Source: Arcobacter sp. LC1 (GTDB taxonomy: Bacteria > Campylobacterota > Campylobacteria > Campylobacterales > Arcobacteraceae). Taken from it: a stretch of DNA of 64,000 nt. Below are positions 14,915 to 39,230 of this stretch, piece by piece. Position 1 is the first letter of the stretch, and every line of letters begins with the position of its first letter. The notes under the pieces were generated by a model, which saw nothing but the letters and a program-made list of their open reading frames with translations, was not told where the DNA came from and did not search any database. The position numbers and the translations under genes are program-made. The stretch is from positions 3,627 through 67,626 of the forward strand of contig JAACJU010000010.1 in NCBI GenBank assembly GCA_021378565.1. The letters are read 5' to 3'.

Positions 14915-15961
14915 TTATTTAAAATGATTCCATTCTAATATTTCATTTTTGTTTATATTTTTTCTTAATTTCATTCCTAAAATTTTATCTCTATCAAAAG
15001 GAGAAATCCCATATCCAGGTCTTAACATCTCAATATCTTCTTTTTTTATAATATCACCGATTTTGAGTTTTTTATTAATATGAAGTGACCTTGTAGCCCA
15101 ATGTTTATCTAAAGATTCACAATCAGTTACTCTTTTTTTTGAATTACCATAAGCTGATTCTAGATTTCTTATTTCTGTAACAAGATTTTTCATATCATTA
15201 GGATCCATGCTAAACCAATGATCTGGCCCTTCTAAATTTTTATCAATAGTAAAATGCTTTTCTATTATTTTAGCACCAAGTCCAATAGCTCCAAGAGATG
15301 CTGTAATGCCCATAGAATGATCTGAAAAACCTATAACACAATCAGGATACATCTGTTTAAGAGTTTTAATAATATTTAAATTCATATTTTTTATCTCTGG
15401 AGGATAAATTGCAATACAATGCAATAAGCAAAGCTCTTTTGTGCCATTTTTTCTTAATAAATTTATGGCTAAATCTAAATCACCAATCGTAGATTTTCCA
15501 GTCGATAAAATAACTGGTTTTTTTGTTTGCCCTATCGCCTCTAACATATCAACATAATTCACATCAGATGAGGCTATTTTATAAATTGGGTTATCAAGTT
15601 TTTCCAAAAAACTAACACCATCTAAACTAAATGGAGTTGAAAAACAAATAAGATTTTTACTTTTTGCATAACCATAAATTTCTTGATGAAATTCTCTTTT
15701 TAATGTTACTTTATCAAACATTTCTTCAAGTGTTTCGCAGACCTCATTTCCTTTTTTGCCATATTTGATTAAGTCATTTTTATTTGATATTAATTCATCG
15801 CTAGTATAAGTTTGAAACTTGACAGCATCTACTCCACATTCGTAAGCAGCATCAATAGATTTTTTAGCTAATTCTAGATTACCATTGTGATTAGCTCCAA
15901 TTTCAGCAACAATAAAAGCAGGCATATTATCTGAAATTATTTTATTTCCTATTTTAAACAT
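14915..15961 (-). CDS. nonulosonic acid synthase (NeuB/PseI/LegI family; PseI-like by context)
   Basis: FIVAEIGANHNGNLELAKKSIDAAYECGVDAVKFQ is the NeuB-family N-terminal signature. The C-terminal segment is SAF-domain-like. Confidence 0.85.
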   Translation of the reverse strand: MFKIGNKIISDNMPAFIVAEIGANHNGNLELAKKSIDAAYECGVDAVKFQTYTSDELISNKNDLIKYGKKGNEVCETLEEMFDKVTLKREFHQEIYGYAKSKNLICFSTPFSLDGVSFLEKLDNPIYKIASSDVNYVDMLEAIGQTKKPVILSTGKSTIGDLDLAINLLRKNGTKELCLLHCIAIYPPEIKNMNLNIIKTLKQMYPDCVIGFSDHSMGITASLGAIGLGAKIIEKHFTIDKNLEGPDHWFSMDPNDMKNLVTEIRNLESAYGNSKKRVTDCESLDKHWATRSLHINKKLKIGDIIKKEDIEMLRPGYGISPFDRDKILGMKLRKNINKNEILEWNHFK

Positions 15962-15969
15962 ACTATCTC

Positions 15970-16935
15970 CTATATTTCTATTTTATCAAGTATATTCTCA
16001 ATATTTTTTAAAGAACTACCATCAATTATTTTATAAGCATTTTTACATATATCATTGATTTTATCTAAATCTAACTTTAACATATTTTGATAAGCATTTT
16101 TAATGTCACCTAAATCATTAATCATATTTTTTTCTCCAAAACTTTTTACTATGTATTCTAAGTATTTCCACCTTACAGCAGAAACTGGCACACCTAGACA
16201 CATTGCCTCATAAGTTATCATACCACCAAGAGTGACAACTAAATCACTTGCTAATATTAAATCAACCATATTTACAGGACTATCTAAATATTTTACATTT
16301 TTTTTATATATACTTTTTATATATACTTTTCTTTTTTCTTCCATAGCGGGACCCAGTATTATTGTATAGAAATATTCATTATCTTTTATATTTTCTGAGA
16401 AAAATTCTGTATAAAATGCAGGATCAGCACCTCCAAAACATATTAAGATATTTTTAACTTTACTAATTGGCACATAAGTTTTTTTTCTATTTTTAACTAC
16501 ATTTTCAGGAACTATATAATATTCAAAACCTCTTATAATATCGATTTTATCATTTTTATAAACATAATCAAAACTATCTGATATGATTAATAAATCAGGT
16601 TCAAAACCTAATTCTAGGCCATTTAAGTGAATAATTTTTCTAATTCCAAATTTTCTTAATCTATTGCTTAACATTTTATCAGCATCTAATAAATCACAAA
16701 TATATATATCGCAATTATATTTTTTAATTATTTTAAGCGAATCTTCTAAACTATCAGATCTTTTAATATTATTTTTTTTATACTTGCAAAAAAGATCTTC
16801 CGTACATTCAAAAATTCCAAGAACTTCTCTTTTTTTTTCTAGATAAGAAATCAATTCATAAGATCTTGATAGGTTACCAATTCCTATATTTTTATTTCCC
16901 CTAGCATGAATTATAACCATTTTAGTGTTCTCCAT
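15970..16935 (-). CDS. PseG-like UDP-sugar hydrolase / GT28-type protein
   Basis: The N-terminus VIIHARGNKNIGIGNLSRS parallels the RxDSSxxIGxGHxxR motif of PseG/SpsG. C-terminal GT-B half: ILICFGGADP... Adjacent to the synthase gene. Confidence 0.6.
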   Translation of the reverse strand: MENTKMVIIHARGNKNIGIGNLSRSYELISYLEKKREVLGIFECTEDLFCKYKKNNIKRSDSLEDSLKIIKKYNCDIYICDLLDADKMLSNRLRKFGIRKIIHLNGLELGFEPDLLIISDSFDYVYKNDKIDIIRGFEYYIVPENVVKNRKKTYVPISKVKNILICFGGADPAFYTEFFSENIKDNEYFYTIILGPAMEEKRKVYIKSIYKKNVKYLDSPVNMVDLILASDLVVTLGGMITYEAMCLGVPVSAVRWKYLEYIVKSFGEKNMINDLGDIKNAYQNMLKLDLDKINDICKNAYKIIDGSSLKNIENILDKIEI

Positions 16936-17332
16936 TATAGCTATTAAAAAAGATTTTTAAAATATGTTTTATATTTTTAATTAAAAATTTTGTTAGTTAT
17001 GGCTTGTTAGATAGTGCATTATAATAGTATAAATTATGCTTTTATAATCGTATATGCAATAGATTTATTTTCAGCACCATATTTTAAAGATTTAAAGAAA
17101 TATTGCCAACTCATAACTAAGCCTTAACTGAAATAAAATTTTAGTATATTTGTAATTTTATCTAATATTGCATGGATTAGAGCTTATATTTTAGATAAAT
17201 AAGTATTTAATATTTTTTCAATTAAAAGGAATAAAAGTCAAAATAAATTTTAAAAGATTATTCACTTTTTATCTATAAATTTCATATAGTTTTGATTCAG
17301 TGAATATAACCTTTTCTTAAAGAATATTTCAC

Positions 17333-17338
17333 TATAAT
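17333..17338 (+). promoter_or_regulatory. candidate -10 box (TATAAT) of the fez-like operon
   Basis: TATAAT lies 31 nt upstream of the GTG start at 17369. An AAGGAAG ribosome-binding site is at 17356-17362. Confidence 0.4.
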
Positions 17339-17368
17339 TAAATTTGAAAATTTAAAAGGAAGCCTCAA

Positions 17369-17683
17369 GTGTTAGAAATTTCTAAACTAGATGAATTAAG
17401 GTCTTATTTTACTTTAATCCATCATACAAAAGGAAGACTTAGGCTAAGAATAAGTTCTAAGATAAAAAGTGAAAAGCAAAATTTAAAACTTGAAGATATT
17501 GATTCTCTTGTTCTAAAGATTAATGGTATCAAAAGTTTAAAAATCAATGAATTAATCGGTTCGCTTACAATACAATATGATAATGATATTTTTCCAAAAA
17601 ATTTATGGGATGACTTATTAGAGGGTAAAAATTTAGAAAAAATTTGCCAAATAATTAATAAAATAATTAAGGAGTTAGAATAA
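17369..17683 (+). CDS. small soluble HMA-like domain protein (HHTKGRLRLRI motif), first gene of the fez-like operon
   Basis: GTG start with an RBS. The motif HHTKGRLRLR...INGIKSLKINELIGSLTIQYD resembles the N-terminal ferredoxin-like domains found on some P1B ATPases. Its stop abuts the next ATG (TAA ATG). Confidence 0.55.
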   Translation: MLEISKLDELRSYFTLIHHTKGRLRLRISSKIKSEKQNLKLEDIDSLVLKINGIKSLKINELIGSLTIQYDNDIFPKNLWDDLLEGKNLEKICQIINKIIKELE

Positions 17684-18421
17684 ATGAAAGAAAATTTTGA
17701 TCAAGAATTGCTAAGTTCTAAAAAAATTGATACTAAACATTCAGAGCCCATTTTACATCAGATTTTAAGAATAGCAGTTTATGATGAGTATTTTGCCTAT
17801 GAGGCTTATTCAAAAGTTTTAGAGCAATTTGGGGCTATTGAGCCTTTTGTACAAATTGTAGAAAATGAAAAAAATCACTATGTTTTTTTGATAAAGCTTT
17901 TAGAAAAATACCAAGTGCCTGTGCCTATTAATGATTGGGCTTTAAAAATCACAATGCCTCAAAGTTTGCTTGAATGTGCTGAACTTGGAGTTGCAAGTGA
18001 GATAAATAATATAAGATTATATGATTATTTACTAGAATTTGCAGAAGAAGATGACGTAAAAGATGCCTTGTATTTTTTACAAGCAGCGTCTTATAATTAT
18101 CATTTACCAACTTTTAGAGCCTTAGTTTCAAAACTTTTTAACGAAGAAGAAACAAGCACGCAAGATTTTTCTTTAAATCAAGATGATTTATTAGCTAAGC
18201 TTCAGCAATTTCAAGAATTAGGAATTTCTCTTGCAAATGGAGAATTAGACCAAGATAAGCTAACAAAGCTTTTAAGCACTTTTAGCCCTTCATTTTTAGG
18301 TGGCTTAGTTCTTGGTGGAGCAGGAAGTTTTTTTGCTTCATCTATGATAAAAACAAGTGAAGAAGAACAAAAAGAAGATAATGATGAAGATGCAAGCGAG
18401 CAAGGTATTGACAAAAATTAG
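17684..18421 (+). CDS. ferritin-like (DUF2202-type di-iron) domain protein with a C-terminal GxxxG membrane segment and acidic tail
   Basis: Candidate di-iron ligand contexts: YDEYFAYEAY, ENEKNH (ExxH), ASEINN, SYNYH. C-terminal FLGGLVLGGAGSFFASSMI is followed by EEEQKEDNDEDASE. Confidence 0.6.
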   Translation: MKENFDQELLSSKKIDTKHSEPILHQILRIAVYDEYFAYEAYSKVLEQFGAIEPFVQIVENEKNHYVFLIKLLEKYQVPVPINDWALKITMPQSLLECAELGVASEINNIRLYDYLLEFAEEDDVKDALYFLQAASYNYHLPTFRALVSKLFNEEETSTQDFSLNQDDLLAKLQQFQELGISLANGELDQDKLTKLLSTFSPSFLGGLVLGGAGSFFASSMIKTSEEEQKEDNDEDASEQGIDKN

Positions 18422-18463
18422 TTAAATAAAACATAATATAACAAAATTAAATAAAGGATAAAT

Positions 18464-18709
18464 ATGTTTGGCTTTATAATTGGATTAGTTATTGGTGGTG
18501 GCGCTGTTGTTGCCTTGAAAAAAAATAAAGGTGGAGCAAAAGAAATCTTTGACAAGGCTAAAAAAGAGGCAAAAGATAAGCTTAAGCTTGGTAAGAAAAT
18601 TGCAAAAGATGTCAAAAAAGATATTAAAAAAAATATCTCTGAGTCTAAAAATGAGTCTAAGAATGAATCTAAAAAAGAAACTAAAATTAACGAAGAAAAA
18701 GGAGAATAA
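18464..18709 (+). CDS. small membrane protein: one GxxxG helix plus a Lys-rich tail
   Basis: MFGFIIGLVIGGGAVVAL followed by a K/E-rich tail. An RBS AAGGA is present. Three overlapping ORFs in other frames are treated as artefacts. Confidence 0.6.
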   Translation: MFGFIIGLVIGGGAVVALKKNKGGAKEIFDKAKKEAKDKLKLGKKIAKDVKKDIKKNISESKNESKNESKKETKINEEKGE

Positions 18710-18711
18710 AA

Positions 18712-19062
18712 ATGGCAAAATTTTCAATAAACACAGGAGAGCCTAGACATGTTTTCGGGCATTTTGTTAGCGGAGCCGTTGCTTGCGGAATTGCAAGTGC
18801 AACATTAAATTATAAAGATTATAAAAATAAAGAGTTAAGCACTAAGCAAATTTTAGTATCTACACTAAAAACTTCAGTAGAAGGTGGAGCGGTAACTGCA
18901 AGTGCAATAGCAGCTGCAAATTATCTAGGTAAGGGAAATATTTTAGGATTATTAGGAAGTGTATCTTTAGGACTTGCTAGTGTTTATGCAATAGAGCAAA
19001 TATCACAAAAATATCCTTGCAAAAAAGAAGATGAATTTTTAATAAAAAAAGAAGGAAAATAA
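18712..19062 (+). CDS. small Gly/Ala-rich two-helix membrane protein
   Basis: Strong RBS (AAGGAG). Hydrophobic segments FVSGAVACGIASATL and LGLLGSVSLGLASVYAI. Confidence 0.6.
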   Translation: MAKFSINTGEPRHVFGHFVSGAVACGIASATLNYKDYKNKELSTKQILVSTLKTSVEGGAVTASAIAAANYLGKGNILGLLGSVSLGLASVYAIEQISQKYPCKKEDEFLIKKEGK

Positions 19063-19063
19063 T

Positions 19064-19399
19064 ATGCATGATAATCCATACCAAACAGATATAGAAAATA
19101 CAAGAAAATTTAAAAAATCTCACAAAGGTTGTTCAAATCCTTATATAAAATCGAAACAAAATTATAGCCATAATGGCAAGAATTCTAAGCAAGATGGTTT
19201 TTTAGGTGGTTTTGATACTAATGGTTTTTTAAAAGGGGCATTAATTGGAGCTTCACTTACATTTCTTTTAACAAACGAAAAAGTGCAAAAAACACTATTT
19301 AAAACATTTGCAAAAGGCGGAAACCTTGTTCAAGCTGGAATTGAAGAAATGAAAGAACGAATAGAAGATGCAAAAGCAGAGCTTGAAACTAAGGAATAA
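19064..19399 (+). CDS. small membrane protein with a GxxxG-type helix and a C-terminal coiled/amphipathic segment (YtxH-like)
   Basis: The start lies 1 nt after the previous stop. FLGGFDTNGFLKGALIGASLTFLL is followed by AGIEEMKERIEDAKAELE. Confidence 0.55.
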   Translation: MHDNPYQTDIENTRKFKKSHKGCSNPYIKSKQNYSHNGKNSKQDGFLGGFDTNGFLKGALIGASLTFLLTNEKVQKTLFKTFAKGGNLVQAGIEEMKERIEDAKAELETKE

Positions 19400-19400
19400 A

Positions 19401-21545
19401 ATGCAAAAAGTAAGACTCTTACATTCTACTAATAATAGGGCTAGATTTTATTTTGGCTCTTTAAATAAGATTTTAAATATTAGTGAATTTATTTTTGATT
19501 TAGAAAAAAATAAAAAAATAAAAAAAGTAAGAATCAATAAAAAAGTTAAAAGTATAATCCTTATTTTTAAAGATTTAGAAATTTCTTTTTTGCAAGATTT
19601 ACTAGAAAATTTAGAAATTTCTAAATACTTATCTTCTGCAACTTTTTTGAGCCTAAACGAAACTTCAAGCAATGAAAATAAACCTTCTTTAAAAGAAGTT
19701 TATAAATCTTCAAGTGTAATGGCTTTAGTACCTTTGATAAAAAATGATTATGCAAAAATGTTTTTGACATCATTTGCTGTTAGACCTTTGTTAATTGATG
19801 GGTTTAAAGAATTTTTTAAACACGGCTTAACTTCAAGAGTGCTTGAAGCTACTGCTGTGGGTGTTTCTTTTGCAAGAAAGGATTATCTTGCGGCGAATTC
19901 TACAAATGCTTTACTTGAACTTGGAGAATATATAGAAGAAACTACAGTTCATAGAAGTGATGATTTGATAAAAGAATTAGCAAAACCAAATGTAGAAGAA
20001 GCTTGGATTGAAAAGACAAAAGATGGAAAAAAAATCCAAGAAAAAATAAAAACTGCATTACTTAAAGTAAGTGATATCGTTGTAGTTAGAACAGGCGATA
20101 CCATAGCAATTGATGGGCATATTATAAGTGGAAAAGCCCTTGTAAATCAAGTATCTATGACAGGTGAAGCGCAAAGTGTTGAAAAAAGCAGAGGCGATAG
20201 GGTAATTTCAGGAACTATTGTCACAGAAGGCACTATCAAAATATGGGCTGAACAAGTAGGTGATGATACGGCGACAGCTAGAATAAAAAACTATATTAAA
20301 AATTCTTTAGATGAAAAATCAAAAATAGGGCTAAAAGCAAGTAAATTAGCTGATAAATTAGTGCCGATTACTTTGGGCTTAGCAGGTTTTTCTTATCTGA
20401 TTTCAAGAGACTTTAAAAATGTAGCTTCTGTTTTACAAGCTGATTATTCTTGCGCTTTAAAACTTGCAACTCCAGTTGCATTTAAAGCTTCTATTTCTCA
20501 AGCTGGAAGAAATGGCGCTATGATTAAAGGGGCAAAATCTATTGAAAATCTAGCCCTTGCTGATACTTTTGTTTTTGATAAAACGGGAACTTTAACTAAG
20601 GGGCAATTATTAGTTGAGTCTGTTTTGTCTTTTGATAAAAATTGGAGCGAAGAAGAGCTTCTTAATCTAAGTGCTTCAGCTGAAGAGCATTATTTTCACC
20701 CTGTGGCTGAAGCTATTGTAAATGCTGCTAAAAATCAAGGTTTTGTGCATATGCACCATGAAGAAGTAGAATTTATAGTTGCGCATGGAGTAAAAACTAG
20801 TGTGAAAGACAAAGAAGTAATTATCGGAAGTAGGCACTTTTTAGAAGATGATGAAAAAATTGATTTTTCTAAATATGATGAACAGATTAAAAAACTTCTT
20901 GTTAATGGAAATATGGTTTTATATGTGGGCTATGGTAAAAAACTTTTAGGAATTATTAGCTTAAAAGACACGCTAAGAGAAAATGCCAAAGAAAGTATTA
21001 TAAAACTAAAATCGCTTGGTGTTAAAGAAATTATTATGATAACAGGAGATATAGAAAGCAAGGCAAAAGAAATCGCTGATGAGCTTGGCATCGATAAATA
21101 TTACGCAAATGTTTTACCCACACAAAAAGCCAAAATTGTAAAAGACTTAAAAGATGAAGGCAAAAATGTAGCTTTTATAGGAGACGGCATAAACGACGCA
21201 CCTGCTTTAATTAGTGCAAATGTTGGGATTTCTATGCACAAAGGTGCAGATATTGCCAAGGCGACAGCTGATATTGGACTTTTAAAAGATGATATTGCTT
21301 TGGTAGCTGAGCTAAAAGAATTGTCAAATAAAACGCTAAGTAGAATTAATAGAAATTTTAAGGCTACAGTTGGCATCAATAGTCTTATTTTATTTAGTGC
21401 TACACTTGGAGTTTTAAATCCTATTTCAACAGCTGTACTTCATAATGGTACAACTATTGCACTTTTGATTAACTCTTTAAGAAAAATAAATATTGATAAT
21501 GCAAACAATACAAATAATCCAAATAAAAAAGCAAAGAAAGCATAA
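19401..21545 (+). CDS. P1B-type heavy-metal ATPase, P1B-6-like (FezB-like)
   Basis: DKTGTLT (FVFDKTGTLT), TGE (MTGEAQ), MITGD, GDGINDAPAL. The TM4 motif is SCA (ADYSCALKLATP) instead of CPx. The last TM has HNGTT. There is no CxxC metal-binding domain. The start is moved to ATG 19401 (RBS AAGGAA, 1 nt after the upstream stop) rather than the track start 19368. Confidence 0.85.
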   Translation: MQKVRLLHSTNNRARFYFGSLNKILNISEFIFDLEKNKKIKKVRINKKVKSIILIFKDLEISFLQDLLENLEISKYLSSATFLSLNETSSNENKPSLKEVYKSSSVMALVPLIKNDYAKMFLTSFAVRPLLIDGFKEFFKHGLTSRVLEATAVGVSFARKDYLAANSTNALLELGEYIEETTVHRSDDLIKELAKPNVEEAWIEKTKDGKKIQEKIKTALLKVSDIVVVRTGDTIAIDGHIISGKALVNQVSMTGEAQSVEKSRGDRVISGTIVTEGTIKIWAEQVGDDTATARIKNYIKNSLDEKSKIGLKASKLADKLVPITLGLAGFSYLISRDFKNVASVLQADYSCALKLATPVAFKASISQAGRNGAMIKGAKSIENLALADTFVFDKTGTLTKGQLLVESVLSFDKNWSEEELLNLSASAEEHYFHPVAEAIVNAAKNQGFVHMHHEEVEFIVAHGVKTSVKDKEVIIGSRHFLEDDEKIDFSKYDEQIKKLLVNGNMVLYVGYGKKLLGIISLKDTLRENAKESIIKLKSLGVKEIIMITGDIESKAKEIADELGIDKYYANVLPTQKAKIVKDLKDEGKNVAFIGDGINDAPALISANVGISMHKGADIAKATADIGLLKDDIALVAELKELSNKTLSRINRNFKATVGINSLILFSATLGVLNPISTAVLHNGTTIALLINSLRKINIDNANNTNNPNKKAKKA

Positions 21546-21796
21546 TGGATAAAACAATAAAAGCTAAAACTAATTTAGAAACAAAAAAAGAATTAGCAAA
21601 AATAGGAATGAGTGTTTCCATGGGCTTAACTGTGCTAAGCTCTTTTTCTATGAAATCAAAAACTATGAAAAATATCCATTTAGGCGCTGGAGTTGCTCTT
21701 GTTGGATTTTCTTTTTGGCACTATGCTTTGTATGAAAAAGATAAGAAAATTAAACCAAGTAAATTAGACAAACTAGACAAAATAAAAAAGCCTTAA
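21545..21796 (+). CDS. small two-helix membrane protein, last gene of the fez-like operon
   Basis: Its ATG overlaps the ATPase stop (TAATG). Hydrophobic segments IGMSVSMGLTVLSSF and LGAGVALVGFSFWHYAL. Confidence 0.55.
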   Translation: MDKTIKAKTNLETKKELAKIGMSVSMGLTVLSSFSMKSKTMKNIHLGAGVALVGFSFWHYALYEKDKKIKPSKLDKLDKIKKP

Positions 21797-21949
21797 GAAA
21801 ATATCTTCAAAATTTTTAAAAAACTATAAACCCAATAAAACTAATAAACAAAAATCCAAAAGCCTTAACTTGACTTTAAGTTAAAATTTGCAAGTATTAG
21901 AAGTATTTAATAAAAATTATAATAATTCTAAGACTAGAAAAGGCAGAAA

Positions 21950-22252
21950 ATGAAAAATCTATTATTAGTTATATCAGCAATATTATTTTTAAGTGGGTGC
22001 AATTTTGATTATTTAAAATCAGGTAAAGAATTAAAAAAAGAAATTAGTCAAATTAAAAAAAGAGACCCGTATGGCTTTGATGGCGAATTAGATAAAAAGT
22101 TAGCTAGTTTGCAAAAGGCTTTTTATAATACTGCTGAGGGTAAAGCTCAGCTAAAAGCAAACAAAATACATAATGACAAGATATATAAACAAATAGTAAA
22201 AGACTCAAAGCTAAGCCCTGAAGCTAAAAAATGGTGGGCGGAAAGAGAATAA
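21950..22252 (+). CDS. small lipoprotein
   Basis: Signal peptide with a lipobox: MKNLLLVISAILFLSGC. Confidence 0.7.
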   Translation: MKNLLLVISAILFLSGCNFDYLKSGKELKKEISQIKKRDPYGFDGELDKKLASLQKAFYNTAEGKAQLKANKIHNDKIYKQIVKDSKLSPEAKKWWAERE

Positions 22253-22572
22253 ATAAATTTTAAGGAGTAAGAAGATGAAAGGATTTAAAGAATAATTATA
22301 AAAGAACAAGCTAGAAAAATCCGCACAAAATTAGCTAAAAATACTAAAGATAATTTATAAATTTAGTAAGTGGTATGCTTGCACATAATTATAAAACTAA
22401 TAAAGTTATTAGAATAAAGCAAAAATTCTCATGATAGTGGAGTATTCACCTTATAGTTGCAAAATATTTAAAAGATATAAAATCTATTTGACTAGATTTT
22501 AAACATTGAGTCGAGTTTTTAAAATCAAAGATATTAAGTACAATATTTATAGAAATACGTTATAATATCTTT

Positions 22573-34538: not shown

Positions 34539-35596
34539 AAAACCTTATATTTTTTATTGTTGTTGTACTAGGTCTAAGTGCTTGCTCAAGTATCAATCTA
34601 GGTATCGGCAATTCTAAGCAAGCTACTACATCAAAACCAAACCTATTGCCTTCATCAAGCAAGAAGAAAGTAGGTAAACAAGCTTATAGAGTTGCTTTGC
34701 TTTTTCCTTCTAAAGTGGTGGGAAATTATGCTTATGATTTGGTAAATACTGTTTCAACTTATCTACTTATGCAAAACAAACAATTCAAAATCAAAATTTA
34801 TGATTCTTTTGATGAAAAGACAGATTCTATAAAAAAACAAATTGCAAAAATCAATGATGATGGATACACAAATGTAATCGCCTTGCTAACTCAAAAAGGA
34901 TTTTTGGAGATTAGAGATGATGAAAGTATTAAAGGTTTAAAAATTTATTTTCCAATTATAAATAAAAATAATTATTATGTCAAACATAAAAATCTTTATT
35001 TTGGCGGAGTAAATTATAAGCAACAACTTGAATATTTAATCCTTTATTCAAATGAAAATATAGTAGATTTTTATGATGATTCTTTTGTAGGGCAAAGATT
35101 AGACGACATGGTAAAATCCCTAGCTCCCAAAATTCTTTATTCGCATGTAATTGATGCAAGAAATAGTAGATATAGATATTTAGTTAATCATGACTCTTTA
35201 AATGATTCAAGTTTGATTTTAAATACACCTATTGTAAAAACTTCTATACTTTTATCACAAATTCAAGCAAATACTGATATTGTCCCAAAAATTATTTTAT
35301 CGACCCAACTAAATTATACTCCTTTGATTTTTTCACTAACTCAAGTAAATGATAGAAAAAATCTAGTAATAGCAAATTCTATCGGAAAAGTTTCTCCATC
35401 TTTAAATGAAGCGCTCTTGTTAAATAATGTAAATATTAATTATAACTTTTTAGCATTTTCATCTCTTGTTGGTATTGATTATTTGTTTTCAGATAATCAC
35501 TCTAGTTTGTTAAATTATGATATGGTAAATAATCAAGCAATTTACCTAGTTAGTCTTTATAAAGTCAATGATTTTAGCTTTGAAGAGATTAAGTAA
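34535..35596 (+). CDS. lipoprotein, possibly LpoA/periplasmic-binding-fold-like
   Basis: TTG start with a GGAG RBS. Lipobox LGLSAC. YRVALLFPSKVVGNYAYDLVN resembles the PBP type-1 / LpoA C-domain N-terminus. Confidence 0.45.
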   Translation: MKNLIFFIVVVLGLSACSSINLGIGNSKQATTSKPNLLPSSSKKKVGKQAYRVALLFPSKVVGNYAYDLVNTVSTYLLMQNKQFKIKIYDSFDEKTDSIKKQIAKINDDGYTNVIALLTQKGFLEIRDDESIKGLKIYFPIINKNNYYVKHKNLYFGGVNYKQQLEYLILYSNENIVDFYDDSFVGQRLDDMVKSLAPKILYSHVIDARNSRYRYLVNHDSLNDSSLILNTPIVKTSILLSQIQANTDIVPKIILSTQLNYTPLIFSLTQVNDRKNLVIANSIGKVSPSLNEALLLNNVNINYNFLAFSSLVGIDYLFSDNHSSLLNYDMVNNQAIYLVSLYKVNDFSFEEIK

Positions 35597-35637
35597 AATT
35601 TGGTTAAAATGCCAAATAATATAATTTGGAGTTAGGT

Positions 35638-37413
35638 TTGAGAACACACTATTGCGTTGATGTTACGGAAAAAAATATTGGAGATATAGTAAGAGTTTCT
35701 GGTTGGGTAAATTCAAGAAGAGACCACGGTGGGATTATTTTTATTGATTTAAGAGACAAAGGTGGCTTGGTTCAACTAGTTTGTGATCCAAATGACAGTC
35801 AAAGTGCTTGGGAGATAGCAAGCAATATAAGAGATGAATTTGTAATAAGCGCAAAAGGAAAGGTAAGGCTAAGAGGAGAAGGCTTAGAAAATCCAAACCT
35901 AATCACTGGCAAAATTGAAATTATTATAGAAGATTTGCTTGTAGAAAATAAATCTAAACCTATGCCTTTTGATTTAGGTGATTTAAAAGTAAATGAAGAA
36001 ATTAGACTTAAGCATAGATTTTTAGAACTTAGAACACCAAAAAGTTATGAAATTTTTGCTTTAAGAAGTAAAGTAAGTTTGACTGCTAGAAATTCTTTAG
36101 ATAAGATGGGTTTTTTAGATGTAGAAACACCTTTGCTCACAAAATCTACTCCTGAAGGTGCTAGAGATTATTTAGTTCCAAGTAGGATTCATCATGGGCA
36201 TTTTTTTGCACTTCCTCAGTCTCCTCAGATTTTTAAACAATTATTAATGGTCTCAGGTTTTGACAGATATTACCAACTTGCAAAATGCTTTAGAGATGAA
36301 GATTTAAGAGCAGATAGACAGCCTGAATTTACTCAAATTGATGTTGAAATGAGTTTTTGTGACCAAGAAGAGATTATTAGAGTTGCACAAAAACTTCTAG
36401 TAGATGTTTTTAAATCTTGTGGACATGAAATACCAAAATATTTTCCTAGACTAACTTATCTTGAAGCTATGGAAAAATATGGAAGCGATAAGCCAGATTT
36501 GAGATATGATTTGCAAATGAAAGAAGTTAGTGATATTTTCTTAAAATGCTCGAATGAGATTTTTTCAACACTAGCAAAAGATAAAGAAAAAAATAGAATT
36601 AAAGCATTAAGAATACCAAATGGAGATAAAATTTTCTCAAAAAGACAGATGAAAGGCTTTGAAGACTATGTGAAAAAATTTGGAGCAAGTGGTTTAGGAT
36701 ATTTTCAATTTAAAGAAGATGGACTAAAAGGACCACTTATTAAATTTTTTGAAAAAGAAGATTTAGATGAGCTTATCAAACAAACAAACTTAAGAGTAGG
36801 GGACGTAGTATTTTTTGGTGCAGGGTCTAAAAAACTTGTTTGGGATTATATGGGAAGACTAAGAATTCATTTAGCACAACTTATGGATATTATTCCAAAA
36901 AATGTTTTTTCTTTTCTTTGGATTGTCGATTTTCCTATGTTTGAGCTAATTGATGGTAAGGCTAAAGCTTTGCATCATCCTTTCACTATGCCACAAATTC
37001 CTGATAATGATGTAAAAAACTTAGATAATATAGAAAATCTAGAAGATTTAAAATCATTTGCTTATGATGTAGTTTTAAATGGCGTTGAGCTAGGTGGTGG
37101 AAGCATAAGAATCCATAAAGAAGATATTCAAGCTAAAGTTTTTTCACTTCTTGGAATTAGTGAAGACGAGGCTCAAGAAAAATTTGGTTTTTTACTTGAT
37201 GCACTTTTATTTGGCGCACCTCCACATGGTGGCTTTGCTCTAGGGCTTGATAGATTACTTATGCTTTTAACTAATTCATCATCCATAAAAGATGTTATTG
37301 CCTTCCCAAAAACTCAAAAAGCACAGTGTTTAATGACTGAAGCTCCAGATGTTGTTTCAACTAAGCAACTAAACGAATTAGGACTTAAGCTAAAAGTACT
37401 TAATCCTAGCTAG
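35638..37413 (+). CDS. aspS: aspartate--tRNA ligase
   Basis: MRTHYC...[58 protein letters not shown]. The start is placed at TTG 35638 (GGAG 6 nt upstream; the canonical MRT.YC N-terminus) rather than TTG 35626. Confidence 0.95.
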
Positions 37414-37430: not shown

Positions 37431-37903
37431 TGCAAAATATTTCTTACAATCTAAAATACTCTAAATATCAAAAAATAACTTCAATTTATCAACTAAAATT
37501 TCAAGAAAACTTGAAAATTGATAATATATTTTTAGTATAAATTAATATTATTTTAATAAAAAATAAAAAAAATATGCTTAAAAAAATTATTTTTTCACTT
37601 TAGTTTTGCTTATAAAAAAAATCAAGTTTTACCTAAGATAGGAACTTAAGAAGTAAAATATTCTTTATAAAAAGATAATTATTATTATTAAACCCTTATA
37701 AGTGTAGATAATAAACAGCTTAAAGAGGTTTTTATAAAAAAATATAAAAATAGTGCTAATGAAATTAGTATATACTCAAAAAAGAGTAAAATTATATATA
37801 AAGTTTTTAAATAGAAAAAAACTTAATTTAGTTATTTTTATTTTGAAATTTTATTATATTTGTTAAATTATTATTTTTTATTTGAATTCTTTCATGAAGA
37901 GAT

Positions 37904-37943: not shown

Positions 37944-39230
37944 ATGGTTGAAAAAGTATTAAAAATTCTAGAAGAAGAGATTGTTGCAGCTGAGGGCTGT
38001 ACTGAACCTATTGCTATAGCTTATTTAGCAAGCAAATGCGTAAGTATCATAGGAGGTATTCCTGAAAAATTAGAATTAGAATTATCAGGAAATATAATCA
38101 AAAATGTTCAAAGTGTAAAAATACCAAATTCAGATGGTATGGTTGGTATTGAAGCTGCTGCTGCACTTGGAATGATTCTAGGAGACTGCTCAAAAGAATT
38201 AATGGTAATATCTTCAGTTAATGAACATAAATTGCCAGTAGTTCAAAAATATCTTGATGAAGATAGAATAAGTATTAAAAAAATAGAGCACGAAACTGCA
38301 AAATTGCATTTAATAGCTACGGCTTATTTAGGAAGTGATAAAGTCATGGTTGAGATTAAACATTATCACACAAATATAGTTAAGATTGAAAAAAATTCAA
38401 AACCAGTTCCAAATTCTTTGCTGTGTGATGCAATGGGTGCTAGTGATACTATGACAAACACAGATTTTTTAACAGTTGCTCTTATCTATGATTTGGCTAA
38501 AACTATTGAACTTGAAAAAATCGCTCCACTTTTTGAAAAAGTTATAACTTATAATAGTGCTATTGCAAATGAAGGGCTAAAAAACACTTATGGCGCAGCT
38601 GTTGGTAAAACCTTAGCACAGGGCATGAAAGAAGGCGTTTATGGGCGTGATGTGAAAAATAAAATTATGAGTTTTACTTCAGCTGGAAGTGACGCAAGAA
38701 TGAATGGTTGTTCTTTACCCGTTATGACTACAAGTGGAAGTGGAAACCAAGGAATGACAGCATCTTTGCCCATAATAAAATATTGCGAAGAAAACAATAT
38801 TTCTCATGAAAAATTAATTAGGGCTTTATTCTTATCTCACTTAACAACAATTCATATAAAATCAAACATAGGACGTCTTTCAGCGTATTGTGGTGTAGTT
38901 TGCTCAGGTGGTGGTGTTGCCGCTGCCTTATCATTTTTAGATGATTTGTCACTTGAACAAATCGAAACTTCTATTGAGACTACTTTGGCTACTTTGTCAG
39001 GTATGATTTGTGATGGAGCAAAATCTTCTTGTGCAGCTAAAATATCAGCTTCGGCTGCTATGGCATTTGATGCTTATTATATGTCAAAAAAACATACAAA
39101 CTTTAAGCAAGGAGAGGGCATAGTTGGGAAAAATGTTGAAGGAACACTAAAAAATATAAATGTTTTAGCACATAAGGGACTTGAAGAAACAGACGAAGTC
39201 ATCTTAGATGTTATCTTAAAAAATAAGTAA
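37944..39230 (+). CDS. UPF0597/YhaM-family protein (L-cysteine desulfidase / serine-dehydratase-alpha-like)
   Basis: N-terminal EEEIVAAEGCTEPIAIAYLA (the GCTEP motif of the YhaM family). Later SGSGNQGMTASLP and CDGAKSSCA. Confidence 0.7.
   Translation: MVEKVLKILEEEIVAAEGCTEPIAIAYLASKCVSIIGGIPEKLELELSGNIIKNVQSVKIPNSDGMVGIEAAAALGMILGDCSKELMVISSVNEHKLPVVQKYLDEDRISIKKIEHETAKLHLIATAYLGSDKVMVEIKHYHTNIVKIEKNSKPVPNSLLCDAMGASDTMTNTDFLTVALIYDLAKTIELEKIAPLFEKVITYNSAIANEGLKNTYGAAVGKTLAQGMKEGVYGRDVKNKIMSFTSAGSDARMNGCSLPVMTTSGSGNQGMTASLPIIKYCEENNISHEKLIRALFLSHLTTIHIKSNIGRLSAYCGVVCSGGGVAAALSFLDDLSLEQIETSIETTLATLSGMICDGAKSSCAAKISASAAMAFDAYYMSKKHTNFKQGEGIVGKNVEGTLKNINVLAHKGLEETDEVILDVILKNK

Follow-up and report, generated by a model that had tools for sequence, protein, structure and literature searches.

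We analysed a 64-kb stretch of DNA (64,000 nucleotides, nt; hereafter the window) from Arcobacter sp. LC1 and, within it, a candidate fez (ferrosome) operon at 17369-21796 that is built around a P-type ATPase. An earlier note on this DNA had described this region as seven translationally coupled open reading frames (ORFs) in a Campylobacter-like genome. In the ORF listing all seven were found at these positions and on the same (+) strand, and we refer to them as genes 1 to 7 (Table 1). The proposed coupling held for five of the six junctions: the TAA of gene 1 (17681-17683) directly abuts the ATG of gene 2 at 17684, genes 3 and 4 are separated by 2 nt (18709 to 18712), genes 4 and 5 (19062 to 19064) and genes 5 and 6 (19399 to 19401) by 1 nt each, and genes 6 and 7 overlap in a TAATG (21543-21547). 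It did not hold between genes 2 and 3 (18421 to 18464), a junction that the note had not listed, where a 42-nt spacer carries its own AAAGGA ribosome-binding site. The description of the genome was loosely right; its nearest relatives are Arcobacteraceae. The G+C fraction of the cluster (0.29-0.31) matches that of the neighbouring DNA. A longer form of the ATPase (725 amino acids, aa) starting at an in-frame ATG at 19368 was rejected because the N-termini of homologues align from the ATG at 19401 (714 aa).

Table 1. Positions of the cluster features in the window, with A. butzleri RM4018 counterparts and the second ATPases of related loci (positions within each locus).
Feature	Position	Strand	Length	Description	fez group (published members)	A. 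butzleri RM4018 counterpart
Candidate promoter/operator	17312-17338	+		Imperfect 7-1-7 palindrome TTTTCTT-A-AAGAATA (17312-17326), TATAAT (17333-17338)		
Gene 1	17369-17683	+	104 aa, GTG start	Soluble R-rich HMA_2-domain protein	3-1 (Abu_0716, RPA2337)	Abu_0716, R-rich, 104 aa
Gene 2	17684-18421	+	245 aa	Ferritin-like (DUF2202-type) four-helix bundle	5 (Abu_0715, WS1575)	Abu_0715, ferritin-like, 228 aa
Gene 3	18464-18709	+	81 aa	GxxxGxxxG-helix protein	2-6 (Abu_0714, WS1574)	Abu_0714, GxxxG, 84 aa
Gene 4	18712-19062	+	116 aa	MamC-like membrane protein	4-3 (Abu_0713, WS1573)	Abu_0713, 116 aa
Gene 5	19064-19399	+	111 aa	YtxH-like GxxxG protein	2-1 (Abu_0712, RPA2334, Sputcn32_3194)	Abu_0712, GxxxG, 120 aa
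Gene 6	19401-21545	+	714 aa	FezB-type P1B-6 P-type ATPase	FezB	Abu_0711, 703 aa
Gene 7	21545-21796	+	83 aa	DUF4405-like protein	3-3 (WS1569, CHAB381_0352, CCV52592_1376)	
Second SCPC ATPase, L001	1711-3897					
Second SCPC ATPase, L004	1430-3619					
Second SCPC ATPase, L005						
Second SCPC ATPase, L018	1474-3669					
Second SCPC ATPase, L032	1899-4070					
Second SCPC ATPase, L034	1752-3974					
Second SCPC ATPase, L042	1780-3957					

The ATPase at the centre of the cluster

The catalytic P-type motifs of gene 6 are all intact (TGE at aa 254-256, DKTGT at aa 393-397, MITGD at aa 546-550 and GDGIND at aa 594-599). The protein scored above the cutoff of the heavy-metal P1B model TIGR01525 (478 bits) and also matched Pfam E1-E2_ATPase and Hydrolase. 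FezB proteins are defined by D[Y/F]SCA in transmembrane helix (TM) 4 and HNxxT in TM6 (Grant & Komeili, bioRxiv 10.1101/2020.01.10.902569). Most of them also have an arginine-rich (R-rich) motif, RxR or RxRxR, at the N-terminus, although this motif is not FezB-specific and occurs in related non-FezB pumps, CtpC among them (bioRxiv 10.1101/2020.01.10.902569). All three signatures are present in gene 6: DYSCALK at aa 348-354, so that the SCA motif read earlier in TM4 is real; HNGTT at aa 681-685; and RAR at aa 13-15, within an N-terminus (LLHSTNNRARFYF) that also gave a weak HMA_2 match at aa 5-61. DYSCALK occurs in all 41 full-length homologues and HNGTT in 40 of the 41, and both strings are, by the published motifs, those of the validated FezB proteins RPA2333 of Rhodopseudomonas palustris and Sputcn32_3193 of Shewanella putrefaciens; FezB of Desulfovibrio magneticus has DFSCAIK and HNLAT in their place. 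Because gene 6 is orthologous to the published Arcobacter FezB entries, we assign it to FezB.

One alternative explanation is that gene 6 is a conventional heavy-metal exporter of the cell membrane, serving detoxification of Fe, Zn, Cd or Co with the help of small accessory membrane proteins and with no organelle involved. In addition to TIGR01525, gene 6 passed the NCBIfam Cd-family subfamily model TIGR01512 (348.7 bits vs a cutoff of 313.5), its homologues are labelled 'P-type Zn(2+) transporter' in UniRef, and its best matches among solved structures are CopA-type pumps; a sequence search of the PDB returned no FezB structure, the best match being CopA of A. fulgidus. Finally, the window offers no iron-regulatory context.

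Comparison with characterised exporters argues against this explanation. We built a neighbour-joining tree with a single reference for each class of exporter (CopA and ZntA from E. coli, CadA and CopB from S. aureus, SilP from Klebsiella and CzcP from C. metallidurans) and without any experimentally characterised FezB sequence, and in this tree the SCA-type ATPases, gene 6 included, formed a clade apart from CopA, SilP, CopB, CadA, ZntA and CzcP in 200 of 200 bootstraps, while gene 6 and CzcP were joined in none of the 200. In one alignment, gene 6 was 24-28% identical to the Cu, Ag, Zn/Cd and Co/Zn pumps (26% to CzcP) vs 48-66% to the SCA-type homologues, for which the best tblastn segment reached 70%. 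Placement inside the Cu/Zn/Cd/Co exporter clades, which the earlier note had named as an outcome that would refute the fez reading, was thus not observed. Gene 6 resembles P1B-4 pumps in being a P1B ATPase with a Ser-x-Cys-type motif in TM4 and an H-[E/N]-G-x-T motif in TM6; PfeT, a P1B-4 pump, exports Fe(II). Unlike the P1B-1, P1B-2 and P1B-4 exporter references compared, gene 6 has no CPC, CPH or SPC motif in TM4; CzcP, for example, combines SPC in TM4 with HEGST in TM6, where gene 6 has SCA and HNGTT. Moreover, homologous operons yield intracellular granules, and the relatives of the cluster adjoin fur and feoB, genes of iron regulation and uptake, rather than resistance genes. No exporter operon is known to combine tail-anchored ferritin-like, MamC-like and GxxxG proteins in a fixed order. 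We therefore regard an exporter as rather unlikely.

Accessory proteins

The stand-alone HMA-like protein claimed earlier is encoded by gene 1, which exceeded the Pfam HMA_2 cutoff (35.4 vs 30 bits, E=1.2e-8), is 42-58% identical among relatives and resembles the R-rich N-terminus of the gene 6 pump. It carries HTKGRLRLR at aa 19-27, which includes GRLRLR, and it matches published group 3-1, accessory R-rich proteins of fez clusters. No hydrophobic stretch was found in the gene 1 protein. Gene 7 is its converse, with two hydrophobic stretches (aa 20-36 and 43-63) and no R-rich motif. Its invariant residues are K42, H45, W58, H59 and Y63, and 33 of 34 members of its family matched Pfam DUF4405 below threshold (best E=1.2e-4). 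Gene 7 overlaps the stop codon of the ATPase here, but lies 100-200 nt downstream of it in most relatives. From these sequence features, the functions of FezC appear to be split over genes 1 and 7.

The assignment of gene 2 as ferritin-like, also made earlier, was supported by structure prediction. The protein scored slightly below the Pfam Rubrerythrin cutoff (22.2 vs 22.8 bits), and PF09968 is present in many of its homologues, which are annotated as DUF2202 or ferritin-like. An AlphaFold (AF2) model built from 65 sequences has a helical-bundle core with a predicted local distance difference test (pLDDT) score >90, for which the top Foldseek matches in the PDB were MJ0754, Rv2844, bacterioferritins and ferritins (template-modelling scores to the target of 0.64-0.74). 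The protein thus combines a predicted four-helix bundle with conserved Glu and His residues, the invariant positions including E35, E62, H65, E100, E106 and H140, although the fourth helix has YxxH in place of the expected ExxH. At its C-terminus, a hydrophobic segment (aa 196-222) with GxxxG at aa 207 precedes an acidic tail. With a C-terminal anchor and no signal peptide, gene 2 would have its ferritin-like domain in the cytoplasm and only the acidic tail in the lumen.

The remaining small proteins are encoded by genes 3, 4 and 5. Gene 3 begins with a hydrophobic helix of the GxxxGxxxG type (aa 1-18), with GxxxG motifs starting at aa 3 and 7, and continues in a Lys/Glu-rich tail; in most relatives this position holds an ORF of 68-112 aa that is conserved in the N-terminal helix only, and the published motif of the corresponding group 2-6 is PFLLGLALGAGAVV (bioRxiv 10.1101/2020.01.10.902569, supplementary tables). 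In gene 5, a GxxxG helix (FLKGALIGASLTFLL), read directly as GALIG with invariant G58 and G62, is followed by a conserved amphipathic helix (AGIEEMKERIEDAKAE), and 24 of 40 family members matched Pfam YtxH below threshold; the published motif of its group, 2-1, is DFVKGALIGAAVTY (bioRxiv 10.1101/2020.01.10.902569, supplementary tables). The earlier note had taken all of the small membrane proteins to be rich in GxxxG-type helices. A literal GxxxG is indeed found in hydrophobic stretches of the 81-, 116- and 111-aa proteins, and also of the 245-aa protein, but not in the 83-aa protein (gene 7). Genes 3, 4 and 5, together with the C-terminus of gene 2, therefore supply the adjacent small hydrophobic GxxxG proteins by which fez clusters are recognised. 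In all, four or five of the small proteins have hydrophobic helices that are rich in Gly and Ala.

Gene 4 has three uncharged stretches, one at aa 13-34 and two next to each other at aa 58-73 and 75-94. Against the NCBIfam MamC model (NF038051) it scored 32.3 bits (E=9e-8), below the equivalog cutoff of 100, and 38 of 41 family members likewise matched this model below its cutoff, over both hydrophobic segments and the loop. Annotation pipelines have already given MamC labels to its orthologues, in the form of a precomputed match to Pfam PF26373 'MamC' and, for the A. butzleri orthologue, the NCBI name 'magnetosome protein MamC'. When a profile of the gene 4 family was searched against 1.84 billion representatives, 100 clusters were recovered at E <= 0.001, indicating a small family, and of 77 matches that were tested, 28 matched the MamC model (best E=2.5e-18). 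None of these was shown to reach the cutoff, so a bridge from gene 4 to bona fide MamC was rejected and the homology stays sub-threshold. No other magnetosome gene was found near gene 4, and the literature searched contained no paper on a similarity between Fez proteins and MamC or on a protein link between ferrosomes and magnetosomes. Judged by these profile scores, gene 4 is MamC-like, not MamC.

Counterparts among published fez clusters

Clusters of this composition have been catalogued before in the Campylobacterota. FezB homologues are tabulated for Wolinella succinogenes, Campylobacter hominis, C. curvus, C. gracilis, Helicobacter winghamensis, H. macacae, Arcobacter butzleri, A. nitrofigilis, Sulfurospirillum barnesii and S. 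multivorans (bioRxiv 10.1101/2020.01.10.902569). The same seven-gene set as in the window is listed there for C. curvus 525.92 (CCV52592_1376-1382, with Fur at 1383) and W. succinogenes (WS1569 and WS1571-1576), and for C. hominis, C. gracilis, A. nitrofigilis and A. butzleri (six, Abu_0711-0716, plus Fur, Abu_0717) the tables give five to six of these groups. The small protein beyond FezB belongs to group 3-3 in W. succinogenes (WS1569), C. hominis, C. curvus (CCV52592_1376) and C. gracilis. These clusters have the groups and the relative order found here (3-1, 5, 2-6, 4-3, 2-1, FezB, 3-3), and the protein lengths in A. butzleri can be compared with those of the window in Table 1; a difference is that fur adjoins the C. 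curvus and A. butzleri clusters but not the window copy. The window ATPase is about 60-70% identical to those of named Arcobacteraceae genomes. Because the motif strings published for Abu_0716 and Abu_0712 were found unchanged in retrieved loci whose ATPases are 61-64% identical to that of the window, our homologue set can be tied to the published fez set.

This comparison does not bear out the view that the cluster is an elaborated variant with an HMA-like and a ferritin-like protein as extra parts. All seven genes map one to one onto groups tabulated in 2020 and, because the same seven groups are listed for C. curvus and W. succinogenes, the supposed extra parts are standard components. In contrast, the central proposal of the earlier note, a fez-type cluster around a P1B-6 ATPase and small GxxxG proteins, agrees with every published sequence criterion that could be tested. 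The fez identification is thus sound, but the system is not new, because the same layout was catalogued in Campylobacter, Wolinella and Arcobacter in 2020.

Among experimentally validated systems, the six-gene operons of R. palustris CGA009 (RPA2333-2338; order FezB, 2-1, 4-2, 2-5, 3-1, 3-2) and S. putrefaciens CN-32 (Sputcn32_3193 onward) share with the window a collinear backbone of 3-1, GxxxG, group 4, 2-1 and FezB, and differ from it in having no ferritin-like gene of group 5. Both operons are necessary for ferrosomes, and that of S. putrefaciens is also sufficient in E. coli; the ferrosomes are Fe/P granules of ~20 nm, bounded by a membrane, which form under anaerobic conditions and reduce the lag phase when iron is limiting (bioRxiv 10.1101/2020.01.10.902569). 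The fezABC cluster of D. magneticus RS-1 and the fezAB cluster of Clostridioides difficile, both of which are linked to iron starvation, resemble the window cluster in combining a FezB P1B-6 pump with at least one GxxxG membrane protein, but are much smaller; unlike the window, D. magneticus fezABC encodes neither a ferritin-like nor a MamC-like protein. Fur represses the fez genes of C. difficile, which help this species to colonise, and its ferrosome mineral is a disordered ferrous phosphate that is kept separate from cytosolic redox chemistry.

Taken together, these results make it probable that the seven genes form an intact fez (ferrosome) operon of the kind catalogued in Campylobacterota, here in an uncultured member of the Arcobacteraceae. 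Several points weigh against this conclusion. Besides the Cd-family model match and the Zn(2+)-transporter labels of the ATPase, and the composition of the tree as described above, the metal specificity and membrane localisation of the pump cannot be read from its sequence. The cluster has no fused FezC-type protein (R-rich plus two TM, group 3-2), only its apparent halves in genes 1 and 7, and where the R. palustris and S. putrefaciens operons have FezC (3-2), 2-5 and 4-2, the window has 3-3, 2-6 and 4-3. Neither fur nor feoB lies within the 64-kb window, and a scan of 16936-17368 for Fur boxes with three consensus sequences gave a best score of 12/19, which is not above the window-wide background. 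Lastly, the literature searched contained no experimental work on ferrosomes in Campylobacterota and no paper linking ferrosomes to Arcobacter. This agrees with the earlier statement that no ferrosome has been characterised in Campylobacter-like organisms, although the genes themselves had been reported.

Conservation, regulation and biological meaning

Of 52 genome loci compared, about 40, from independent genomes of Arcobacteraceae and Sulfurospirillum, have genes 1 to 7 in this order, as does a plasmid, which is more than chance would give; the flanks are not conserved. The small ORFs are thus conserved together with the ATPase, and the second outcome that the earlier note had named as refuting, a lack of such conservation, was not observed either. 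The best matches to gene 6 are Arcobacteraceae and Sulfurospirillum proteins (60-70% identity) and one metagenomic protein (92%). In the closest relative (locus L059, on a 247-kb ENA contig) the seven genes are kept at 81-92% protein identity, with the S10 ribosomal operon downstream as in the window but, unlike the window, a molybdate ABC transporter upstream. The plasmid is a 133-kb Arcobacter plasmid (CP129951.1, 128912-133388; locus L053) with all seven genes, which the Prokaryotic Genome Annotation Pipeline (PGAP) names, from gene 1 to gene 7, hypothetical, DUF2202, hypothetical, hypothetical, YtxH domain-containing, ATPase and hypothetical.

One Halarcobacter metagenome-assembled genome (MAG) contains a 4.79-kb segment that spans exactly the cluster twice (L018:3743-8530 and L049:3741-8530), at 99.7% identity and with different flanks. 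An 85%-identical pair of clusters (L020 and L043) within one Aliarcobacter bin is possibly a binning artefact. We conclude from the plasmid copy, the near-identical duplicate and the variable flanks that the ~4.8-kb fez module behaves as a mobile unit. In seven loci (Table 1), a second P1B ATPase of ~725-740 aa with an R-rich N-terminus and SCPC in TM4 lies directly upstream of gene 1; that of L042 is ~29% identical to the window ATPase. In sequence, this SCPC ATPase resembles the published FezH, and no gene for such an ATPase was found in the 64-kb window.

The regulatory context of the cluster differs between the window and most of its relatives. A FUR-family gene lies directly upstream of the cluster in about 18 related loci (for example L016:3465-3911; Pfam FUR E=2e-32), and feoB is the upstream neighbour in three. 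About 30 of 35 related loci, exemplified by L004, L007, L012, L015 and L016, have a GATAAT-containing element, TTGATAAT(G/A)A...TATAAT-AAG, 55-75 nt upstream of gene 1, which by its sequence resembles a Fur box that overlaps the -35 region. Neither the adjacent FUR gene nor the GATAAT element is present in the window or in L059, which instead share TTTTCTT-A-AAGAA(T/A)A followed by TATAAT. This block forms a candidate promoter/operator with a putative function, ~30 nt upstream of the first start codon, and its palindrome is perfect in L059 (TTTTCTT-A-AAGAAAA). The window copy thus seems to have lost Fur-type control. Scans of 16900-22300 for sigma-70 promoters and intrinsic terminators gave counts at or below the shuffle expectation, a search for inverted repeats upstream of the cluster found only AT-rich chance pairs, folding of the 153-nt downstream spacer yielded only a weak AT-rich hairpin (z = -1.45), and an Rfam scan of the whole window returned no matches.

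The apparent loss of Fur-type control bears on two further explanations. In the first, the cluster would build a ferrosome-like vesicle that stores another metal (Mn, Co or Zn) or that serves mainly detoxification by sequestration and not as an iron reserve. The absence of Fur-type control in the window copy is consistent with this explanation, as is the occurrence of the R-rich motif in related non-FezB pumps including CtpC, and the literature consulted contains no direct measurement of metal selectivity for a P1B-6 pump. But the TM motifs of gene 6 are identical to those of iron-storing FezB proteins, and both the ferritin-like partner and the iron-gene neighbourhood of the orthologues fit iron handling, which makes storage of another metal quite improbable. 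In the second, the cluster would be a silent or decaying module that was acquired horizontally and has no current function. Here the mobility of the module and the loss of the fur gene and Fur-like promoter element of the relatives would be expected. Nevertheless, the seven ORFs are intact, tightly coupled and equipped with ribosome-binding sites, the catalytic motifs of the ATPase are undamaged, the GC content matches that of the neighbouring DNA, and the closest relative keeps both the seven genes and the same promoter block. Decay is thus very improbable.

Upstream of the cluster, at 14915-16935 on the opposite (-) strand and divergent from gene 1, are a NeuB-family sugar synthase gene and a weakly DUF354-like gene (nonulosonic-acid or glycosylation genes); downstream, the gene for a 100-aa lipoprotein (21950-22252) and a further ~950 bp separate the cluster from the S10 ribosomal-protein operon, which runs from 23201 onward on the + strand. 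The downstream flank is common to the window and its closest relative and the upstream flank is not. The lipoprotein gene and the upstream NeuB and glycosyltransferase genes were rejected as parts of the cluster because they are not conserved with it. The best Fur-box-like palindromes of the window lie elsewhere, at 37668-37692 and 34961-34979 (scores of 15/19 against the E. coli consensus and 14/15 against a 7-1-7 consensus), the former flanked by a gene that resembles aspartyl-tRNA synthetase (identified by eye, 35626-37413) and a gene of the serine-dehydratase-alpha family (37944-39230). Both may be chance occurrences in DNA of ~28% GC.

On the preferred reading of the cluster as a fez operon, a mechanism can be proposed in which the sequence features come from the window and the cell biology is drawn from D. 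magneticus, S. putrefaciens, R. palustris and C. difficile. The FezB-type pump (gene 6) would reside in the membrane of a cytoplasmic vesicle and move Fe(II) from the cytoplasm into the lumen, driven by ATP through D393 of DKTGT, with the SCA motif of TM4 and the HNGTT motif of TM6 as the predicted site of passage. In the lumen, iron would accumulate as an amorphous iron-phosphate mineral and serve as a reserve for iron starvation under anaerobic or low-oxygen conditions. The vesicle membrane would be formed and stabilised by genes 3 (GxxxG), 5 (YtxH-like), 4 (MamC-like) and 7 (DUF4405-like). The soluble R-rich HMA_2 protein of gene 1 may pair with the similar R-rich domain at the N-terminus of FezB, acting as a chaperone or in targeting, and the ferritin-like protein of gene 2, tail-anchored in the same membrane, may bind or process iron there. 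All roles proposed for genes 1-5 and 7, in membrane shaping, targeting or nucleation, are hypothetical.

A more far-reaching possibility is that the ferrosome of Campylobacterota is a mechanistically distinct sub-type, in which genes 4 and 2 nucleate the mineral, the halves of FezC act separately (genes 1 and 7) and, in this lineage, the operon has escaped Fur control. We consider this unlikely. If the MamC-like gene 4 and the acidic-tailed gene 2 do control nucleation, they would provide a molecular link between ferrosomes and magnetosomes. If Fur control has been escaped, the position of the cluster beside the S10 operon and behind a different 7-1-7 operator (TTTTCTT-A-AAGAAAA) would mean that something other than iron serves as the regulatory signal.

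By itself, the cluster is one more instance, in an uncultured Arcobacteraceae lineage, of a cluster already catalogued; it changes little and would not surprise a specialist. Its wider interest lies in the phylum, in which ferrosomes have been predicted for seven years with no test reported in the literature searched, and among whose members are the food-borne and emerging pathogens Aliarcobacter butzleri, Campylobacter curvus, C. hominis and C. gracilis. In C. difficile the organelle contributes to colonisation. Experiments in Campylobacterota could be guided by the presence of a MamC-like protein, the apparent division of FezC into two proteins, the mobility of the ~4.8-kb module and the loss of Fur-type control seen here.

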